The position numbers were made by a program, and so were the translations under genes. A model generated the notes under the pieces. The model did not search any database. It was not told the DNA's origin and saw only the letters and a list, made by a program, of their open reading frames with translations. Positions 40,120 to 53,017 of a DNA stretch of 64,000 nucleotides are shown here, one piece after another. Origin of the DNA: Escherichia coli (GTDB lineage: Bacteria; Pseudomonadota; Gammaproteobacteria; Enterobacterales; Enterobacteriaceae); assembly GCF_050320075.1 (NCBI RefSeq), contig NZ_CP190018.1. One strand, 5' to 3'. Positions within the stretch are counted from its first letter, which is position 1. Every line of letters begins with the position of its first letter.

Positions 40120-42011
<1,892 letters not shown>

Positions 42012-42025
42012 CTCCGGAAACGCTC

Positions 42026-42694
42026 ATGCAAGAAAGTATACAACTGGTTATTGATTCCTTGCCGTTCCTGCTGAAAGGGGCTGGGTATACGCTGCAACTC
42101 AGTATCGGCGGCATGTTTTTTGGCTTACTGCTCGGGTTTATTCTCGCGCTGATGCGCCTTTCGCCAATCTGGCCCGTGCGCTGGCTGGCGCGTTTTTATA
42201 TCTCTATTTTTCGTGGTACGCCGCTCATCGCCCAACTGTTTATGATCTATTACGGCTTGCCGCAGTTTGGCATCGAACTAGATCCCATTCCGTCAGCAAT
42301 GATTGGTCTGTCGCTAAACACTGCCGCCTATGCTGCCGAAACGCTGCGCGCCGCCATTTCTTCTATTGATAAAGGTCAGTGGGAAGCTGCTGCCAGTATT
42401 GGTATGACGCCGTGGCAGACCATGCGTCGCGCGATTTTGCCACAGGCGGCGCGGGTGGCGTTGCCGCCGCTGTCGAACAGCTTTATCAGCCTGGTAAAAG
42501 ATACGTCGCTGGCCGCGACAATCCAGGTGCCGGAGCTGTTCCGTCAGGCGCAGTTGATTACCTCGCGTACGCTGGAGGTGTTCACCATGTACCTGGCGGC
42601 TTCGCTCATCTACTGGATCATGGCGACAGTATTATCGACGTTGCAGAACCATTTTGAGAATCAACTTAATCGCCAGGAGAGAGAACCAAAATGA
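42026..42694 (+). CDS. tcyL: L-cystine ABC transporter permease TcyL (YecS)
   Basis: 222-aa membrane protein with ABC permease EAA-like loop. Confidence 0.92.
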   Translation: MQESIQLVIDSLPFLLKGAGYTLQLSIGGMFFGLLLGFILALMRLSPIWPVRWLARFYISIFRGTPLIAQLFMIYYGLPQFGIELDPIPSAMIGLSLNTAAYAAETLRAAISSIDKGQWEAAASIGMTPWQTMRRAILPQAARVALPPLSNSFISLVKDTSLAATIQVPELFRQAQLITSRTLEVFTMYLAASLIYWIMATVLSTLQNHFENQLNRQEREPK

Positions 42695-43443
42695 GTGCCA
42701 TTGAAGTTAAGAACCTGGTGAAAAAATTCCACGGTCAGACGGTGCTGCACGGTATCGACCTTGAGGTGAAGCCTGGCGAAGTGGTGGCAATTATCGGGCC
42801 AAGTGGTTCCGGCAAAACCACGTTGCTACGCAGCATAAATCTGCTGGAACAACCGGAAGCGGGAACCATCACCGTTGGCGATATCACCATTGATACTGCA
42901 CGTTCATTAAGTCAGCAAAAATCGCTGATTCGCCAGTTGCGTCAGCACGTCGGGTTTGTCTTCCAGAACTTTAATTTGTTTCCGCATCGTACGGTGCTGG
43001 AAAACATTATTGAAGGGCCGGTGATCGTCAAAGGCGAACCGAAAGAAGAGGCCACGGCGCGCGCTCGCGAGCTGCTGGCGAAAGTTGGGCTGGAAGGTAA
43101 AGAAACCAGCTATCCACGTCGTTTGTCTGGCGGTCAACAGCAGCGTGTCGCGATTGCGCGAGCGCTGGCTATGCGTCCTGAGGTGATTTTGTTTGACGAG
43201 CCAACGTCGGCGCTGGATCCAGAGCTGGTGGGCGAAGTCCTGAACACCATCCGCCAGCTGGCGCAGGAAAAGCGCACGATGGTGATTGTGACGCACGAAA
43301 TGAGCTTTGCCCGGGATGTTGCGGACCGGGCGATCTTTATGGACCAGGGGCGGATAGTCGAGCAGGGGGCCGCAAAAGCGTTATTTGCCGATCCTCAGCA
43401 GCCTCGCACCCGCCAGTTCCTCGAGAAGTTTCTGCTGCAATAA
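42691..43443 (+). CDS. tcyN: L-cystine ABC transporter ATP-binding protein TcyN (YecC)
   Basis: Walker A GPSGSGKTT, signature LSGGQQQRVAIARAL, Walker B ILFDEPTSALD. Confidence 0.95.
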   Translation: MSAIEVKNLVKKFHGQTVLHGIDLEVKPGEVVAIIGPSGSGKTTLLRSINLLEQPEAGTITVGDITIDTARSLSQQKSLIRQLRQHVGFVFQNFNLFPHRTVLENIIEGPVIVKGEPKEEATARARELLAKVGLEGKETSYPRRLSGGQQQRVAIARALAMRPEVILFDEPTSALDPELVGEVLNTIRQLAQEKRTMVIVTHEMSFARDVADRAIFMDQGRIVEQGAAKALFADPQQPRTRQFLEKFLLQ

Positions 43444-43672
43444 TAAGAAAAAATCAGCCCCGACGATTCACCTGTCGGGGCGGGACGCCATTTCAAGCGT
43501 GATAAATCTGCTTAACAAATCAGCATAACTCATTAATAACATAAGAGAATGCGATGGCTTGCAAAAGTAATTCATTGCCTGAATAATATAAATTATATAT
43601 AAATCTTATTTATGTGATAGTTTGAATTATCATTATAAATGATACTCACTCTCAGGGGCGTTGCGGTTTACT

Positions 43673-44395
43673 ATGCAGGATACGGATTTTTTCAGCTGGC
43701 GTCGCACGATGCTGTTGCGTTTTCAGAGGATGGAGGCCGCAGAAGAGGTCTACCATGAAATAGAGCTTCAGGCTCAGCAGCTGGAGTACGATTACTATTC
43801 GTTATGTGTTCGCCACCCGGTACCATTCACGCGACCTAAAGTGGCTTTCTACACCAATTACCCTGAGGCTTGGGTTAGTTATTATCAGGCAAAAAACTTT
43901 CTCGCAATTGATCCTGTGCTGAACCCTGAAAACTTTAGTCAGGGCCATTTAATGTGGAATGATGACTTATTCAGCGAAGCACAGCCGTTATGGGAAGCCG
44001 CGCGCGCACATGGTTTACGCCGCGGTGTCACTCAGTATTTAATGCTGCCAAATCGGGCGCTGGGCTTTTTGTCCTTTTCCCGTTGCAGCACGCGCGAAAT
44101 ACCCATTCTTAGTGATGAACTGCAATTAAAAATGCAGTTACTGGTGCGAGAAAGTCTGATGGCTCTGATGCGTTTAAATGATGAAATAGTGATGACGCCA
44201 GAGATGAATTTCAGCAAGCGCGAAAAAGAAATTCTGAAATGGACGGCGGAAGGGAAGACATCAGCAGAGATAGCGATGATTTTGTCAATCTCTGAGAATA
44301 CGGTCAATTTCCATCAGAAAAACATGCAGAAAAAAATCAATGCACCAAATAAGACCCAGGTGGCCTGTTACGCGGCCGCTACTGGCTTAATTTGA
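43673..44395 (+). CDS. sdiA: LuxR-family quorum-sensing regulator SdiA
   Basis: 240-aa product MQDTDFFSWRRTMLLRFQ... with autoinducer-binding domain and C-terminal LuxR HTH. Confidence 0.94.
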   Translation: MQDTDFFSWRRTMLLRFQRMEAAEEVYHEIELQAQQLEYDYYSLCVRHPVPFTRPKVAFYTNYPEAWVSYYQAKNFLAIDPVLNPENFSQGHLMWNDDLFSEAQPLWEAARAHGLRRGVTQYLMLPNRALGFLSFSRCSTREIPILSDELQLKMQLLVRESLMALMRLNDEIVMTPEMNFSKREKEILKWTAEGKTSAEIAMILSISENTVNFHQKNMQKKINAPNKTQVACYAAATGLI

Positions 44396-44427
44396 TCGCT
44401 TTTCTTTCTGCGTGCCAGATGCAAAAA

Positions 44428-44460
44428 CCGGCTGAAAGGCACGCTCTCAGCCGGTTTTAT
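44428..44460. terminator. Bidirectional intrinsic terminator between convergent sdiA and yecF
   Basis: Hairpin CCGGCTGAAAGG...CTCAGCCGG with a T-run on the + strand. Confidence 0.5.
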
Positions 44461-44461
44461 A

Positions 44462-44686
44462 TTACTGACGGTAGGCTTGTTTAATTTGCTTAACCGTTTT
44501 GGAAAATACTGCAGCCTGGGTTTCGTCTTCGATCAGCGCAAGCTGTTTTTCCATCTTTAACATCACGCGGCCCGCGTCAGCTTGTCCCATCGCCTGCAGC
44601 ATCAGCGTCAGCATCGCTTTCAGGCAGGAGACTTCATTTGCCAGTTCTTGATTATTCTCGGCAGTAGAAAAATCAGGCGTACTCAT
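44462..44686 (-). CDS. yecF: Small protein YecF (DUF2594)
   Basis: 74-aa ORF; conserved position between sdiA and uvrY. Confidence 0.85.
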
Positions 44687-45144
44687 TTATTTTCCTCGTC
44701 ATGTTGCAATGAAAATTTGCGGTGAAAAATGTTAAGGCGGCGGAGTATACCATAAGCTTTGCTAAAAATAGCAGTGGTTGTTTTTTGAGCGTGATATCGG
44801 CAGTGCTATAAAATACGTTAATATAATGACCAATAAATATTTTTATCATGAATGTTTTTTGCCCGTATTGTTCGGGTTAATTAATGTTACATATTCAGCG
44901 GGCTGATTTTCATTTTTGCTGAATAAAGTCAATTTTTGTCACATTTCATCGCAGGGCTTACAGTGAAACGATCCCGGAAGCCGTTGGTGACGGGCGTGAC
45001 CATAACTGTGGACAATCGAATTTACAAAAACGAGAGAAAAATCGAATACCCACCATTTTTAACGTTTCAAAGTTGCAATAAAAACCGCTAATATACGAAT
45101 GACTAACTATCAGTAGCGTTATCCCTATTTCTGGAGATATTCCT

Positions 45145-45801
45145 TTGATCAACGTTCTACTTGTTGATGACCACGAACTGGTGCGCGCAGGGATACGACG
45201 CATTCTGGAAGATATAAAGGGTATAAAAGTCGTCGGTGAGGCATCGTGCGGTGAAGACGCCGTTAAGTGGTGCCGGGCAAATGCCGTTGACGTGGTGCTA
45301 ATGGACATGAGTATGCCGGGCATTGGCGGTCTTGAGGCGACGCGTAAAATCGCGCGTTCCACAGCTGATGTCAAAATCATCATGCTTACCGTCCATACAG
45401 AAAACCCTTTACCAGCGAAAGTCATGCAGGCCGGTGCTGCTGGCTACCTCAGCAAAGGCGCGGCTCCGCAGGAAGTCGTGAGTGCGATCCGTTCTGTCTA
45501 TTCAGGGCAGCGTTACATTGCTTCTGACATCGCTCAACAAATGGCGTTAAGCCAGATCGAACCAGAAAAAACAGAAAGCCCATTTGCCAGTTTGTCTGAA
45601 CGTGAATTGCAGATTATGCTGATGATCACCAAGGGCCAGAAGGTCAATGAGATCTCAGAACAGCTCAATCTCAGTCCGAAAACGGTGAACAGCTACCGCT
45701 ATCGTATGTTCAGTAAACTAAACATTCATGGCGATGTTGAGCTGACTCACCTGGCAATTCGCCATGGTCTGTGTAATGCGGAGACATTATCAAGTCAGTG
45801 A
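45145..45801 (+). CDS. uvrY: Response regulator UvrY (BarA/UvrY two-component system)
   Basis: 218 aa, TTG start; receiver domain [16 protein letters not shown]... plus LuxR-type HTH. Confidence 0.94.
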
Positions 45802-47630
45802 GTGATCAGTTTGACGCAAAAGCGTTTTTAAAAACCGTAACCAGCCAGCCAGGCGTTTATCGCATGTATGATGCTGGTGGTACGGTTATCTATGTCGGCA
45901 AAGCGAAAGACCTGAAAAAACGGCTTTCCAGCTATTTCCGTAGCAACCTCGCTTCGCGCAAAACCGAAGCGCTGGTCGCCCAGATCCAGCAAATTGATGT
46001 AACGGTTACTCATACAGAAACCGAAGCGCTGTTGCTGGAACACAACTACATCAAACTCTATCAGCCGCGTTACAACGTTTTGCTACGCGATGATAAATCT
46101 TATCCTTTTATCTTCCTGAGTGGCGATACCCACCCGCGTCTGGCGATGCATCGTGGTGCGAAGCATGCCAAAGGTGAATATTTCGGCCCGTTCCCGAATG
46201 GCTATGCCGTACGTGAAACACTGGCGCTACTGCAAAAGATATTCCCCATTCGCCAGTGCGAAAATAGTGTTTATCGCAATCGCTCGCGTCCGTGTCTGCA
46301 ATATCAGATAGGGCGCTGTCTGGGACCGTGCGTTGAAGGACTGGTGAGTGAAGAAGAATACGCTCAGCAGGTCGAGTATGTGCGCCTGTTTTTGTCTGGC
46401 AAAGATGATCAGGTGCTTACGCAACTCATTAGCCGTATGGAAACTGCCAGCCAGAATCTGGAGTTTGAAGAAGCGGCACGTATTCGCGACCAAATTCAGG
46501 CGGTGCGACGCGTCACCGAAAAACAGTTTGTGTCCAATACCGGCGACGACCTCGACGTTATTGGTGTGGCGTTCGATGCGGGCATGGCTTGTGTCCATGT
46601 ATTGTTCATTCGTCAGGGCAAAGTGCTCGGCAGCCGCAGCTATTTCCCGAAAGTGCCTGGCGGTACGGAACTGAGCGAGGTGGTAGAAACCTTCGTAGGT
46701 CAGTTCTATTTACAAGGCAGCCAGATGCGCACCTTACCGGGTGAGATCCTGCTCGATTTTAATCTTAGCGATAAAACGCTGCTCGCCGATTCCCTTTCAG
46801 AACTGGCGGGACGCAAGATTAATGTTCAAACCAAACCTCGCGGCGATCGGGCGCGTTATCTGAAACTCGCGCGCACCAATGCGGCGACGGCCTTAACCAG
46901 CAAACTTTCGCAGCAATCTACCGTTCACCAGCGACTGACCGCGCTTGCCAGCGTGTTGAAATTGCCGGAAGTGAAGCGGATGGAGTGCTTTGACATCAGC
47001 CATACCATGGGTGAACAAACCGTCGCTTCCTGTGTGGTGTTTGATGCTAACGGCCCGCTGCGTGCGGAGTATCGGCGCTATAACATTACTGGCATCACGC
47101 CGGGCGATGATTATGCGGCGATGAATCAGGTGCTGCGTCGGCGTTATGGTAAAGCCATCGACGACAGTAAGATCCCGGATGTGATCCTTATTGACGGCGG
47201 CAAAGGCCAGCTTGCGCAGGCGAAAAATGTCTTCGCCGAACTGGATGTCTCATGGGATAAAAATCATCCGCTGCTTCTTGGCGTTGCCAAAGGTGCAGAT
47301 AGGAAGGCAGGGTTGGAAACGCTGTTCTTTGAGCCGGAAGGTGAGGGATTCAGTTTGCCGCCAGATTCTCCCGCGCTGCATGTTATCCAGCATATTCGCG
47401 ATGAATCACACGATCACGCGATTGGCGGGCACCGTAAGAAACGGGCGAAGGTCAAAAATACCAGTTCCCTGGAAACCATTGAAGGCGTCGGGCCAAAACG
47501 TCGGCAAATGTTGTTGAAATATATGGGCGGTTTGCAAGGTTTACGTAACGCCAGCGTTGAGGATATTGCAAAAGTGCCGGGTATTTCGCAAGGTCTGGCA
47601 GAAAAGATCTTCTGGTCGTTGAAACATTGA
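45798..47630 (+). CDS. uvrC: Excinuclease ABC subunit C (UvrC)
   Basis: 610 aa; GIY-YIG motif (GVYRMYD...YVGKA), UvrBC domain, C-terminal HhH; start overlaps uvrY stop. Confidence 0.95.
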
Positions 47631-47686
47631 TGTCTCTGTAGCAACATAGGGGTAATCTTACTGACAACAGATAGTTACCCGTCATT

Positions 47687-48235
47687 ATGCAATTTAATAT
47701 CCCTACGTTGCTTACACTGTTCCGTGTCATCCTTATCCCATTCTTTGTATTGGTCTTTTATCTGCCTGTCACCTGGTCGCCGTTTGCCGCCGCGCTCATT
47801 TTCTGCGTCGCGGCGGTGACTGACTGGTTCGATGGTTTTCTGGCACGCCGCTGGAACCAGAGTACCCGGTTTGGTGCTTTCCTTGACCCTGTAGCAGATA
47901 AAGTTCTCGTGGCTATCGCCATGGTGCTGGTAACCGAGCATTATCACAGCTGGTGGGTGACCTTACCGGCAGCAACGATGATCGCCCGTGAAATTATTAT
48001 TTCTGCGCTACGCGAATGGATGGCGGAGTTGGGTAAACGCAGTAGCGTGGCTGTCTCCTGGATTGGGAAAGTGAAAACCACCGCCCAGATGGTGGCGCTG
48101 GCCTGGCTGCTGTGGCGTCCGAACATTTGGGTTGAGTACGCCGGTATTGCACTTTTCTTTGTGGCTGCGGTACTGACTCTGTGGTCAATGTTGCAATATT
48201 TGAGCGCTGCGCGTGCAGATTTGCTTGATCAGTGA
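47687..48235 (+). CDS. pgsA: CDP-diacylglycerol--glycerol-3-phosphate 3-phosphatidyltransferase PgsA
   Basis: 182 aa; CDP-alcohol phosphotransferase motif region ([10 protein letters not shown]...[10 protein letters not shown]). Confidence 0.94.
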
Positions 48236-48386
48236 TCGTTTCGGCGCAATTTTCAGCAAACGATCAAAAGTGGTGAAAAATATCGTTGACTCATCGCGCC
48301 AGGTAAGTAGAATGCAACGCATCGAACGGCGGCACTGATTGCCAGACGATAATAAAATCAAGTGATTAACTGATTGCTTGATGAAT

Positions 48387-48462
<76 letters not shown>

Positions 48463-48516
48463 GTTTAAAAGGCATCGGCGTCAAGCGGATGTCTGGCTGA
48501 AAGGCCTGAAGAATTT

Positions 48517-48590
48517 GGCGCGTTAACAAAGCGGTTATGTAGCGGATTGCAAATCCGTCTAGTCCGGTTCGACTCCGGAACGCGCCTCCA
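48517..48590 (+). tRNA. cysT: tRNA-Cys (anticodon GCA)
   Basis: 74-nt GGCGCGTTAACAAAGCGGTTATGTAGCGGATTGCAAATCCGTCTAGTCCGGTTCGACTCCGGAACGCGCCTCCA. Confidence 0.95.
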
Positions 48591-48602
48591 CTTTCTTCCC
48601 GA

Positions 48603-48689
48603 GCCCGGATGGTGGAATCGGTAGACACAAGGGATTTAAAATCCCTCGGCGTTCGCGCTGTGCGGGTTCAAGTCCCGCTCCGGGTACCA
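48603..48689 (+). tRNA. leuZ: tRNA-Leu (anticodon UAA), with long variable arm
   Basis: 87-nt GCCCGGATGGTGGAATCGGTAGACACAAGGGATTTAAAATCCC...GGTACCA. Confidence 0.95.
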
Positions 48690-48763
48690 TGGGAAAGATA
48701 AGAATAAAATCAAAGCAATAAGCAGTGTCGTGAAACCACCTTCGGGTGGTTTTTTTGTGCCTG
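48634..48763. repeat. Left direct repeat (attL-like): 3' part of leuZ plus its downstream terminator
   Basis: 130 bp identical, apart from one indel, to 52766..52896; covers the anticodon-loop-to-3'-end of tRNA-Leu and the hairpin AAACCACCTTCGGGTGGTTTTTTTGT. Confidence 0.85.
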
Positions 48764-48941
48764 AAATTCACGCCCTGTGCATATCCTGTGCTCACGGGGG
48801 GCAATGAGCTGCAATCTCAAGCCCGGCAATGCCGAATCGAACGTGTCGCCTCCAGCATAGAGAACCAGGCCGCTTTGCCTGTTTTCCGGTACTCTTCCGG
48901 GAAGGGGGGCCAGCTGAGCAAGCTATAATGCTCTGGCCACC

Positions 48942-49673
48942 CTAAGCACAAAGTTGCTTAATTCGTGCAATCACCTCATCTCTGTATTTCTGGTGTCCGC
49001 GCATAGCCCTTGGATGGGCTATCCTGAAACAGATTGTATGACCTGTTTTGAACTCCCATAGCTTCCCCGGAATGACTGAAGAAGTCTCATAGCCGCCTAG
49101 CTCAGTAAGCACCTGTTTTATGATGTAGTCTGTTCTCCGGGCTCCGGATGCAAAGATGGTGAAATCAGGCTCAAGGTGTTTAATTTGTACCGCCAGCAGT
49201 TTCAGCGAGGCTAATATGACTTCCTGCACTTCATTTTGAGGGCGATTGAGAGGGGGCAGTCCGTCGTAATCCCACGCCAGTAGATTGGCATACACGATAG
49301 CCTGAGGAGGAATATTAAGCTCCCGGGCCAGCCGGAAGTGATACTGCGTGAAGCGGCTACGTGATTTGTGGTTCGTGGTGCCATCATTTTGTGCCGGAAG
49401 ATGTTTCCTGTAACGATCTACAGCCTCTTCAACCACCTGCCCGATGGTGACGTCAGGTATAAGTCCCAGAACCCGTGATATCGTATTCTTACCATTCAGC
49501 GTATTCCAGCCAGCGGTTTCACGCCCAACCAGCATGATTTTTACCGGTGAGTGCCAGTATTCTTCAAAGGGCACGGGTAAAAAGACGCCTGAGTATTTAT
49601 CCTCATTCAGGTTAAATGACTGGGCGTCAACTTCCTGTAATATCCGTTTGTATGCGTCTAATAGTCTTTCCAT
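48942..49673 (-). CDS. Hypothetical protein, possible UDG-superfamily (DNA glycosylase-like) fold
   Basis: 243-aa ORF inside the islet; beta-strand plus Gly motif (VKIMLVGRETAGW) near the N-terminus and C-terminal HP motif (FRIAHPRAMRG), similar in position to UDG motifs 1 and 2. Weak, motif-level only. Confidence 0.35.
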   Translation of the reverse strand: MERLLDAYKRILQEVDAQSFNLNEDKYSGVFLPVPFEEYWHSPVKIMLVGRETAGWNTLNGKNTISRVLGLIPDVTIGQVVEEAVDRYRKHLPAQNDGTTNHKSRSRFTQYHFRLARELNIPPQAIVYANLLAWDYDGLPPLNRPQNEVQEVILASLKLLAVQIKHLEPDFTIFASGARRTDYIIKQVLTELGGYETSSVIPGKLWEFKTGHTICFRIAHPRAMRGHQKYRDEVIARIKQLCA

Positions 49674-49723
49674 TCTTCAATCCTGCCCCGTAATAAAAAT
49701 ACCTTCAGATATATATTATTTTC

Positions 49724-50440
49724 ATGATATCAATCAGATACATGAGGATAAATATGCAAAAATCCTTCCGATTCACCAATTCATCCATCAAAGCCCTTCC
49801 GGCAAACACAGATACCCGATCTACAGAGCTTGAGGTATCTGATACCGAAGTCATTGGCCTCAAATGCCTCTCAGGTCGAACGGGCAACAAACGTTTCCTC
49901 CTGCGCTACACATTCCACGGTACCAAAAAAAGTATCAGTATTGGCAGATTCCCTGAAATCGATGTGGGAACAGCCCGTCAGATAGCTCGTCGTCACAAGG
50001 AGGCGATTGCACTGGGAAATGACCCTAAGGCAGAGCGCGATAATTATCGGGCGATGCCAACGCTTAGTGAGTTTTTTCACCAGACCTATGTTCCGTTCAT
50101 CAAGCGCCATAAAAAGTCCTGGGATAAGGATGTTCAGCGTTTCACGCAATACATTGAACCTCGTCTGGGGAAGATACGTTACTGCGACCTTCAGGCCCGG
50201 GAAATCCAGCAGGTGCTTTTTGACATGCTTGAGGGCCGTATTCACGGCCAGCAGTATGCACCGTCTACCTGTAACAGGGCACTGGCTATTCTGAAAACCA
50301 TGGGCCGTTATGCGCTACGACAGGATGTCCTGGAGAAGAATGAAGCCGATAAGATCCCTTTGCTGAAGGAGAATAATCACCGGACGCGCTTTTTTGACGC
50401 TGATGAGATCAGGAGAATCCTTGATGCTGCGTCTCGATAA
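49724..50440 (+). pseudogene. Truncated tyrosine recombinase (P4-type integrase N-terminal arm-binding plus SAM-like region; catalytic domain absent)
   Basis: 238-aa ORF with integrase N-terminal signature (FTNSSIKALP..., GLKCLSGRTGNKRFLLRYTFHGTKKSISIGRFPEIDVGTARQIARRHKEA) but ending before the catalytic R..HxxR..Y domain; adjacent to a tRNA att site. Confidence 0.7.
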
Positions 50441-50454
50441 CCCAATAAAGCTGC

Positions 50455-50490
<36 letters not shown>

Positions 50491-50491
50491 C

Positions 50492-50535
<44 letters not shown>

Positions 50536-50655
50536 TTCTAAGGCTTGCTTTAATGCTAAGGCTAAATGATTTTGATATAGTAAGTTCATACTTAGCGGGC
50601 AGATGCCCACAGACATAGTACCGAAAATAAATCAGGTATTCTGCGAGATTTCAGT

Positions 50656-51984
50656 ATGAAAATAGCCAATATTAGACTTACGAATTTTAGATGTTTTGAC
50701 GAGTTTAGTGTTGATTTTGACCCAAGACTTACAGTTCTCATTGCTCGTAATGGTAGAGGGAAATCTACTCTGCTTGACGCGGTAGCATTAGCTTTAGGAC
50801 CATTTTTAACTCGTTTGCCAGGGATCAAAGGGCTAAGTTTCAAGAAAACCGATTTCCGGATCGACGAAAATGGAGACCAGCCGTCCTATATGCGAGTAAG
50901 TTGTACTAGTACAACGGGTATAACTTGGGATAGAACTGAGCGAAGAGATCTGACAAAAAAAACGTTAGGTAGCATCCCCCAAGGGGCAGCCCTTAAAGCC
51001 TTGAATGATTACGTCGATACGTTCATTGATTCTCACAATGAGAATAAACACTATACATTGCCAATTTTTGTTTATTACGGAACTGGGCGTGGAGTGTTTG
51101 ATATACCACTCAGAAAACGTGCATTTAACAAGCATTTTTCTCGATTTGAGGCCCTTGACGGTGCTCTTGAAAGCAAAACAAATTTCAAAAGATTTGTGCA
51201 ATATTTTTATTTTCTTGAAGAAAAAGAAAATAGATTACAGAAAGAGCAACGATCATTTGAAGTAGAAATCCCTGAATTAAGGGCAATACGCTTGGCTGTG
51301 GAAAAATTACTGCCAGAGTTTAGCAATATTCGCTCGGCAGTACCTGCTGGAATTATGGTCGATTGGTGTAAGCCTATTGGAAATGGTGAAACAACCATAC
51401 AAAAGCTAAGGATTGAACAACTTAGTGATGGCTATAGAACAACTTTAGCTATGGTTATGGATATTGCAGCAAGAATGGCAGAAGCTAACCCCTATTCGAG
51501 TGATCCTCTAAGTTCTGAGGGGATAATTCTCATTGATGAGGTAGATCTGCATCTGCATCCGGAATGGCAACGTGAGTTTCTCCCTAGATTAATCAACGTT
51601 TTCCCTCATCTTCAGTTCATAGTATCGACGCATTCACCATTTATCATCCAGTCTGTCAAAGAGGGGATGTTGGTCGATCTTGATAAAGATGACATTTCGG
51701 ATAGCCCCTCTTTGAATAAAGAACTCAGCATCGAAGATATTGCTGAGGGTGTAATGGGAATGGAAAAAGTTCAACGAAGTGAATTGTTTAACAAACAAGT
51801 CGCAGTTTCAGATAGATATTATCAGTTACTGAATGAAGGAAGAAGTGAAAGCGACCCAGAGGTAAGGAAGCTCTCCGCTGAGCTTGATAAATTGGAAGAG
51901 TTTTTTGGAGATAACCCAGCTTATGTAGCCTTACTTCGTGCTGAGCGCCGAAAAATAATGGGGACACAAGGAAGTAAACAATGA
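50656..51984 (+). CDS. ABC/AAA-type ATPase (AAA_15/AAA_21-like), candidate Septu PtuA
   Basis: 442 aa; Walker A LIARNGRGKSTLLDAV, Walker B/D-loop IILIDEVDLHLHP, H-loop-like FIVSTHSPFI; AT-rich; stop overlaps start of downstream HNH gene (ATGA). Confidence 0.7.
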   Translation: MKIANIRLTNFRCFDEFSVDFDPRLTVLIARNGRGKSTLLDAVALALGPFLTRLPGIKGLSFKKTDFRIDENGDQPSYMRVSCTSTTGITWDRTERRDLTKKTLGSIPQGAALKALNDYVDTFIDSHNENKHYTLPIFVYYGTGRGVFDIPLRKRAFNKHFSRFEALDGALESKTNFKRFVQYFYFLEEKENRLQKEQRSFEVEIPELRAIRLAVEKLLPEFSNIRSAVPAGIMVDWCKPIGNGETTIQKLRIEQLSDGYRTTLAMVMDIAARMAEANPYSSDPLSSEGIILIDEVDLHLHPEWQREFLPRLINVFPHLQFIVSTHSPFIIQSVKEGMLVDLDKDDISDSPSLNKELSIEDIAEGVMGMEKVQRSELFNKQVAVSDRYYQLLNEGRSESDPEVRKLSAELDKLEEFFGDNPAYVALLRAERRKIMGTQGSKQ

Positions 51985-52592
51985 GACCTGTAAATCGACC
52001 TCCATATAATGGAACTGTTTATGCAGATTATAAATCATTTTTACCTTCGCTATTAACTGCATATGGCGGATATTGTTCTTATTGTGAGCGGCCGGATAAG
52101 GTTGATGTGGAGCATGTTGTCCCAAAAACGCATGCACCACTTTTGATTACTGATTGGAACAATTTTTTACTGGGTTGCCCTCGCTGTAACCGAGATTTTA
52201 AAAAAAGTAAGAATACTCAACGTATAGGCTATGTTTGGCCAGATGTTGAGAATACATTTAATTTATTGACATACCATCCAGATGGTAGAGTAGAGCCTAA
52301 GCAGGGGCTGTCTGCCGGACTAACTGCGCAGGTACAGGCTACTATTGATTTGGTATGTCTTGATGATGGTAACCAAGTACAAAAAACTTTAAATCTTGGT
52401 AGAAGGAGATATTTTGGACTCGCGAATAAGGCCAAGACTCTTTATCTGAGTAATTTATTGAGTATTGATGAGGTCATGGATATGGCTCAGTTAGGATATT
52501 GGTCGATCTGGTATAATGTGTTTCAAGGTGTACCTGCTGTCCTTTCAGCTTTGGAGAATTCCTATCCTAATACCGCTATAAACCGCCCATGA
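51981..52592 (+). CDS. HNH endonuclease, candidate Septu PtuB
   Basis: 203 aa; HNH/zinc-finger motif CSYCERPDKVDVEHVVPK...NNFLLGCPRCNRDFK (C-x2-C ... H ... N ... C-x2-C); translationally coupled to the upstream ATPase. Confidence 0.7.
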   Translation: MRPVNRPPYNGTVYADYKSFLPSLLTAYGGYCSYCERPDKVDVEHVVPKTHAPLLITDWNNFLLGCPRCNRDFKKSKNTQRIGYVWPDVENTFNLLTYHPDGRVEPKQGLSAGLTAQVQATIDLVCLDDGNQVQKTLNLGRRRYFGLANKAKTLYLSNLLSIDEVMDMAQLGYWSIWYNVFQGVPAVLSALENSYPNTAINRP

Positions 52593-52765
52593 CATAGGTG
52601 AAATGAATTGGCTCAGGTGCGTACAAGGGGAAGACTTACCTGTGCAGCTTCTGTGTTCAACGTTATCCATGTCTATCTATTTACTGCCAATTACAGTAAA
52701 GTTGGTGGATAATTACAGCAAAGTGTTGCAATGGGTTGCTATGTAAATCATTGATCCTGCGTAGA

Positions 52766-52896
52766 ATTTAAAATCCCTCGGCGTTCGCGCTGTGCGGGTT
52801 CAAGTACCCGCTCCGGGTACCATGGGAAAGATAAGAATAAAATCAAAGCAATAAGCAGTGTCGTGAAACCACCTTCGGGTGGTTTTTTTGTGCCTG
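52766..52896. repeat. Right direct repeat (attR-like): partial copy of leuZ 3' part plus terminator
   Basis: 131-bp copy of 48634..48763 with a single-nucleotide insertion (CAAGTACCCGCT versus CAAGTCCCGCT); lacks the tRNA 5' half, so it is not a functional tRNA. Confidence 0.85.
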
Positions 52897-53017
52897 CAAC
52901 TTGTCGTTACACCCTCCTTAATTTTTAATCACCGGCAAAGCCACTCAAAAAGTATCTCTGTTACGGACCGACATGTAAGATAGGTGCTGGCGAGTTGAGA
53001 TCCACAAGGAAAAGCGT

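Follow-up and report, generated by a model that had tools for sequence, protein, structure and literature searches.

In P4-type islands, the integrase gene is placed just downstream of a tRNA gene and transcribed away from it, and repeats of the tRNA 3' end flank the element. The integrase of P4 itself (P4 Int; leuX) carries an N-terminal arm-binding domain, Arm-DNA-bind_3, formerly DUF4102. At leuZ of Escherichia coli, a 26-kb associated island was listed as Island 9 for the APEC O78 strain 789 in 2015 (PMC4313913). Two further systems are close to the locus analyzed here: the type I Septu system, which pairs the ATPase PtuA with the HNH nuclease PtuB, and the integrase pseudogenes of "anchored" or degenerate islands and cryptic prophages, in which a recombinase is lost in association with an insertion sequence (IS) while att repeats and useful cargo are kept.

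The locus lies in a 64-kb stretch of E. coli chromosome (the window, i.e., the whole stretch of DNA analyzed) that covers the uvrC-pgsA-glyW-cysT-leuZ/yecA region, with yecA and tyrP further on. At the empty site of strain K-12, the 67-nt 3'ETS-leuZ sRNA comes directly after leuZ and precedes yecA. In the window, the extra DNA between leuZ and yecA is a 4.0-kb islet at 48764-52765 that includes an integrase-like open reading frame (ORF), a divergent gene (orf243), and a Septu gene pair (table 1). With a probability of about 0.9, we regard the ORF as a pseudogene, the 5' 59% of a leuZ-island tyrosine integrase reduced by ordinary island decay. That the gene is a pseudogene was already known from RefSeq, which describes it as "incomplete; missing C-terminus" and labels it partial in 40 genomes out of 5,426 complete ones; the nonsense codon, the stub of an ISEc31-like element, and the joint between the two are added here.

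Table 1. Features of the leuZ islet and of related islands. Coordinates are those of the window unless a prefix names another locus.
Feature	Position	Strand	Content and evidence
leuZ, tRNA-Leu(UAA)	48603..48689	+	integration target; last gene of glyW-cysT-leuZ; ARAGORN, Rfam tRNA, K-12 empty-site annotation
attL, left direct repeat	48634..48763	+	last 56 nt of leuZ, then the entire 67-nt 3'ETS-leuZ sRNA and terminator (48690-48756)
Left arm of islet	48764..48941	.	non-coding, G+C-rich (59%); ~95% identical to other leuZ islands (alignment with ET350, L008)
orf243	48942..49673	-	island gene divergent from int; predicted uracil-DNA-glycosylase-superfamily fold
int pseudogene ORF	49754..50440	+	228 codons plus TAA; limited to the arm-binding and probable core-binding regions
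Integrase remnant past the stop	50441..50465	+	~25 nt, codons 230-237, PNKAAGGL; BLAST end points 50460-50465
ISEc31-like IS3-family remnant	50455..50535	+	~80 bp from the right end of a 1,258-bp element, with the final 24 codons of the transposase and a right terminal repeat whose last bases are ...CA
ptuA upstream (promoter) region, native	50536..50655	+	120 bp; homologous to the region upstream of Pectobacterium ptuA
ptuA, Septu ATPase	50656..51984	+	442 aa; PADLOC PtuA E 2.1e-190; Pfam AAA_23, AAA_15, AAA_21
ptuB, Septu HNH nuclease	51981..52592	+	203 aa; PADLOC PtuB E 6.1e-61; Pfam HNH
Right arm of islet	52622..52765	.	~85% identical to right ends of other leuZ islands (alignment with ET350); right arm in all 173 bp
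attR, right direct repeat	52766..52896	+	partial leuZ 3' half with one extra A; second exact 3'ETS-leuZ copy (52823-52889)
Island-borne 3'ETS-leuZ variants	L013:440-505, L014:439-504, L001:14013-14078, L012:18939-19004		four islands with intact integrase
Inner module of larger leuZ islands	L012:26906-32947, L016:6204-12233, L004:6463-12452		PolB-like gene, small HTH/AlpA gene, second tyrosine recombinase

Comparison with Described Systems

The islet resembles P4-type islands in the placing and orientation of int and in its flanking repeats, and the ORF has the same N-terminal domain as P4 Int and is colinear with residues 29-195 of that protein. Identity between P4 Int and leuZ integrases is 23-25%, with the intact leuZ protein colinear at 25% over 362 amino acids (E 2e-8), whereas the whole catalytic domain is missing from the ORF in the window. 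Judged by domain order (arm-binding, core-binding, catalytic), "P4-type" is a fair label for the architecture, although the kinship is distant. Unlike the P4 type, leuZ islands have a conserved gene with a predicted uracil-DNA-glycosylase (UDG) fold between att and int, and their att repeat, at ~130 bp, is longer than usual, as it runs on through the 3'ETS-leuZ sRNA.

With the island of strain 789, the islet shares the integration site, orf243, the integrase family (96% nucleotide identity), and both arms. In contrast to that 26-kb island, it is only 4 kb in size, has Septu as its sole cargo, and combines a dead integrase with an IS stub. We see no substantial difference from the integrase pseudogenes of anchored islands and cryptic prophages.

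The Integration Site

Both direct repeats (~130 bp each; repeat search, find_repeats families D1 and D2) are intact, and 48690-48756 is an exact match to the 3'ETS-leuZ of K-12. The att repeat of leuZ islands thus spans an entire regulatory sRNA (K-12 b4759), and both copies in the window are exactly of the K-12 type. Four islands with an intact integrase have an island-borne variant behind leuZ (e.g., TGGGAAACATCAGAAT--AATC..., with a 2-nt deletion and two to five substitutions), the native 3'ETS-leuZ being displaced to attR. This raises the possibility that integration of a leuZ island may swap the host's allele of the sRNA. Over 48300-53100, Rfam at its E-value threshold returned three tRNAs and nothing else.

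In two assemblies (L008:1-8111 and L009:1-8111), leuZ is separated from the islet by a P2-like prophage, which has a 333-aa integrase as well as a Phage_GPA replication gene. The prophage meets the leuZ repeat precisely where the repeat begins (TTTAAAATCCC...; junction aligned to window position 48634), implying that the leuZ site is still in use and can be occupied in tandem.

The Integrase Is Truncated

The ORF was first read as 49724-50440 on the plus strand. Its true start is the ATG at 49754, which follows a GAGGA Shine-Dalgarno sequence by 5 nt and is the start in all intact homologues and in RefSeq. With the start so corrected, the sequence-only reading was right that the ORF has the N-terminal signature of a P4-type integrase and ends before the catalytic domain: Arm-DNA-bind_3 (PF13356) matches residues 17-106 (E 1.1e-14, 54.7 bits against a cut-off of 27), and residues 121-227 match N-terminal regions of XerC/XerD, with the alignment to P4 Int reaching residue 195. 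Phage_int_M is a weak match at 19 bits, under its cut-off of 27. In the Pfam search of the ORF, Phage_integrase (PF00589), the domain with the R-K-H-R-H-Y residues, was absent. Intact leuZ integrases are 400-405 aa and have this domain at residues 213-377.

One rival reading, in whose favor nothing was found, is that a frameshift or a faulty assembly has moved the catalytic domain to another frame. The tblastn queries were an intact 400-aa homologue and, separately, the C-terminal 175 aa of the same protein. In all six frames of the 64 kb (word size 2, E up to 1000), the search aligned residues 1-237 to 49754-50464 at 98.3% amino-acid identity and found no catalytic-domain remnant. There was no other match in the window above chance level (best E 0.29 or worse). 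Forty independent complete assemblies have the same sequence, as do thousands of drafts. A displaced domain is therefore already refuted, its probability being practically nil, and the lesion is a deletion rather than a frameshift. The search also bears out the claim that the DNA between the stop codon and the ATPase gene encodes no C-terminal part of an integrase, apart from ~25 nt (codons 230-237) that precede box I.

Nor is the ORF a complete member of a short protein family of its own, an option that the earlier reading had left standing. It is colinear with residues 1-237 of leuZ integrases at 98% identity, and we found no ~230-aa homologues ending at the same point besides this one identical allele; its relatives are 400-405 aa or are cut elsewhere.

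Two Lesions and an Insertion Sequence Joint

Comparison with leuZ islands that keep int, as had been proposed, revealed a nonsense codon in addition to the loss of the 3' part. In a codon alignment, codon 229 is TAA in the window (50438-50440) and encodes Tyr in four intact alleles (TAC, TAC, TAT, and TAC). Integrase homology continues past this stop and ends at ~50465, 10 codons before the catalytic Arg247 and just short of box I (LLLTGTRKSE); Arg247 was assigned by reading the motif and not by a tool.

The integrase sequence runs into the right end of an ISEc31-like element. Positions 50455-50535 are 100% identical to the right end of ISEc31 and to L003 and L015, and >2,000 genomes carry the segment where IS3-family transposase genes have their 3' end. 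A full ISEc31-like copy in strain P19_598 (L023) is 1,258 bp long, with imperfect terminal inverted repeats (TGTAGTGG...). The element in the window is a remnant, lacking the left repeat and a complete orfAB transposase and retaining the right repeat and 24 codons. As possible sources of the stub, IS3-family copies in L001 and L022 were rejected: neither matches it, and the L022 element is a different member of the family.

The 215-bp gap between the int stop and ptuA (50441-50655) is accounted for by the ~25 nt of integrase, the ~80-bp ISEc31-like end, and the 120 bp upstream of ptuA. The int and IS segments overlap in CGGAGGGCTGA (50455-50465), which the insertion sequence matches at 11 of 11 positions and intact integrases at 10 of 11. 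The single mismatch, an A at 50458, is specific to the window, so the crossover used a common stretch of either 3 or 11 nt. Because the joint is internal to the insertion sequence, it was not made by the transposase. On the other side, the intact outer end of the insertion sequence (...CA, 50535) adjoins native ptuA upstream DNA; homology to Pectobacterium begins right at this end, which identifies the spacer at 50536-50655 as ptuAB's own upstream DNA. As judged from these alignments, the structure is the scar of a deletion or illegitimate recombination beside an insertion sequence. The joint is resolved to within ~10 bp and makes a textbook case of IS-associated integrase loss.

These boundaries also bear on the proposal that the defense cassette was inserted into, or replaced, the 3' part of int. 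A mobile cassette inserting directly into int, splitting it or displacing its 3' part, would fit the lower G+C of the spacer and ptuAB (38-40%, against 50% in int), and ptuAB is a mobile two-gene module found in other contexts in Pectobacterium. But no 3' piece of the integrase lies downstream of the cassette, the joint is with DNA internal to an insertion sequence and not with a cassette end, and the right arm beside attR belongs to the leuZ island family, which places the cassette inside an island as cargo. Direct insertion is thus very unlikely, and of the original proposal only replacement, through a deletion beside the insertion sequence, stands.

Integrase Loss Across the leuZ Island Family

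Homologues of int are at leuZ in 443 of 5,426 complete E. coli genomes (~8%), most of them annotated as full-length (400-405 aa), and intact relatives of the integrase are in ~7% of E. coli genomes. Megablast detected the N-terminal part in 443 genomes and the C-terminal one in 368; the latter is more divergent, so that some copies may have escaped the search and the difference is to be read with caution. Islands with an intact int are 17-28 kb in size and have in common orf243, int, and the left and right arms. Their cargo varies and includes type I restriction-modification, DUF262, SIR2, Hhe, and PD-(D/E)XK and Mrr-type nucleases. Larger islands also hold an inner module (table 1) that, from its gene content, looks like a nested mobile element.

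The same integrase has been lost in other strains by different routes. It was truncated by a plain deletion at nt 477 in PapRG-06-5 and by an IS5 at nt 822 with loss of the downstream DNA in EC21Z-063, and it is interrupted by a simple IS3-family insertion (~nt 1027), with the 3' piece left in place, in CV839-06. Counting the window, E. coli has lost a working leuZ integrase in at least four independent events.

The retained fragment could have been put to a new use, as an expressed DNA-binding protein on the arm sites, as a dominant-negative blocker at leuZ, or by having the int promoter drive ptuAB. A good Shine-Dalgarno sequence and the start codon are kept, the two DNA-binding regions appear whole, and the islet still has its conserved left and right arms. 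In addition, int and ptuAB are co-oriented, a simple scan found no terminator in 50066-51502, and the allele is invariant in 40 complete genomes. This invariance is uninformative, however, since the whole 4-kb islet differs by 0-1 SNP among copies. The changes specific to the window include two amino-acid replacements and the stop codon, short homologues are absent outside this allele, and the scan found no promoter-like site upstream. The varied points at which other lineages cut the gene are those expected of random decay. Reuse of the fragment is therefore very unlikely. In its fuller form, in which the 228-aa protein is expressed and useful and, on the islet arms or the leuZ att site, blocks excision or tandem integration by related integrases, or in which ptuAB is under the old int promoter, we consider it quite unlikely. 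If true, it would mean that the front end of a recombinase was domesticated as a regulator of a defense locus.

Cargo and Arms of the Islet

PtuA and the adjacent PtuB are both full-length matches to the PADLOC Septu models, and the ATG of ptuB overlaps the stop codon of ptuA by 4 bp (ATGA). The pair is like type I Septu in both proteins and in its operon-like gene overlap, with no unusual feature seen; its anti-phage role here is predicted from the genes. In otherwise identical islets, the 3' end of ptuB was struck by insertion sequences twice, independently. In isolate NRZ105019, an IS3-family element (L022:3499-4808) with a 3-bp target duplication is inserted at the equivalent of window 52531-52533; its end sequence looks IS629-like. 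In the other, an IS1 is in the 3' end of the gene (L010:11921-12687). In some strains, silencing of this nuclease gene may be favored.

The product of orf243 matches phrog_29550 and has no match in Pfam, NCBIfam, or PADLOC. Its AlphaFold2 model has a pLDDT of 88.8, and the top Foldseek matches of the model are family-4 UDG, UdgX, SMUG1, and TDG (E 2e-5). A sequence-profile search against PDB sequences gave no match, leaving the fold search alone informative. The gene adjoins int in every leuZ island examined and has homologues across Gammaproteobacteria at 50-95% identity. A role for orf243 as part of the recombination module was dropped, as an Arm-DNA-bind_3 integrase is not a consistent neighbor of its homologues in Stutzerimonas and Pectobacterium. 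The UDG-fold enzymes Brig1, Brig2, and Brig3 act as anti-phage effectors. Because of this precedent, the predicted fold makes orf243 a candidate defense glycosylase.

In the conserved right arm, the motif AATTACAG(T/C)AAAGT occurs twice in tandem, ~29 bp apart (window 52679-52722), and it does so in ET350 as well. It may be an arm-type integrase binding site, a candidate suggested by its sequence and placement. A search for candidate arm sites found no 9-mer common to the left arm, the region upstream of int, and the right arm. About 180 genomes match the cassette query in the right arm alone, at the same chromosomal site.

Origin and Spread of the Islet

These features suggest a history in which an ancestral, larger leuZ island would have had an insertion sequence and Septu as cargo at its right end, with the ISEc31-like element just upstream of ptuA-ptuB. 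By a deletion or illegitimate recombination, int would then have been fused to the ISEc31-like element ~80 bp short of that element's right end, with loss of int from codon 238 on and of all its catalytic residues. The change of Tyr229 (TAC) to TAA is a separate lesion. In this lineage, the island is now down to 4 kb. Since both arms are kept, Septu is best read as surviving right-end cargo. Among 12 window-specific substitutions in the int fragment, 9 are synonymous, 2 replace an amino acid, and 1 creates the stop. This predominance of synonymous changes suggests a distinct allele that diverged while functional and died recently.

The presumed ancestor, in which an intact int would be followed by a complete ISEc31-ptuAB, was not found among 5,426 complete E. 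coli genomes by megablast of the cassette, which returned the 40 truncated copies only; a look-up of the exact PtuA protein gave seven distinct places, all with the truncated int. The nearest relatives of PtuA are in Pectobacterium (84-85% amino-acid identity), in unrelated contexts. Consequently, a one-step deletion in situ and the import of an IS-stub-Septu fragment by illegitimate and homologous recombination are both compatible with the data.

Of the 5,426 complete genomes, 40 have an exact copy of the 4,351-bp region, always at leuZ, and thousands of assemblies are indexed as encoding the identical PtuA protein. Two of the 40 islet-bearing strains are of ST963, MS14384 being one of the ST963 carriers (PMC9429958, PMC10024524). 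In L006 and L010, the islet and its right flank are identical to the window, whereas the left flank differs at 68 positions between 40.7 and 48.5 kb (40677-48472). The last difference, at 48472, places a breakpoint of homologous recombination at the glyW-cysT-leuZ cluster. That an identical islet is on two left-flank haplotypes implies that it still travels by homologous recombination and is not genetically frozen.

It is a reasonable reading of these sequences that the islet, as the earlier reading had proposed, is immobilized, with no recombinase of its own, yet both of its att repeats are intact and intact relatives of its integrase exist in E. coli. The shrunken islet would then have lost self-excision and would be maintained by vertical inheritance and by homologous recombination in the flanking DNA.

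Implications

The islet can serve as a worked example of island anchoring and in curation of the leuZ hotspot, and it carries little weight beyond annotation. The presence of 3'ETS-leuZ inside the att repeat and the UDG-fold gene at the left end of the island are likelier to repay follow-up than the int fragment. What the islet documents, nearly to the base pair, is how a tRNA-linked defense island was whittled to a fixed 4-kb Septu islet by an insertion sequence event probably followed by deletion at a short common stretch, plus a nonsense mutation.
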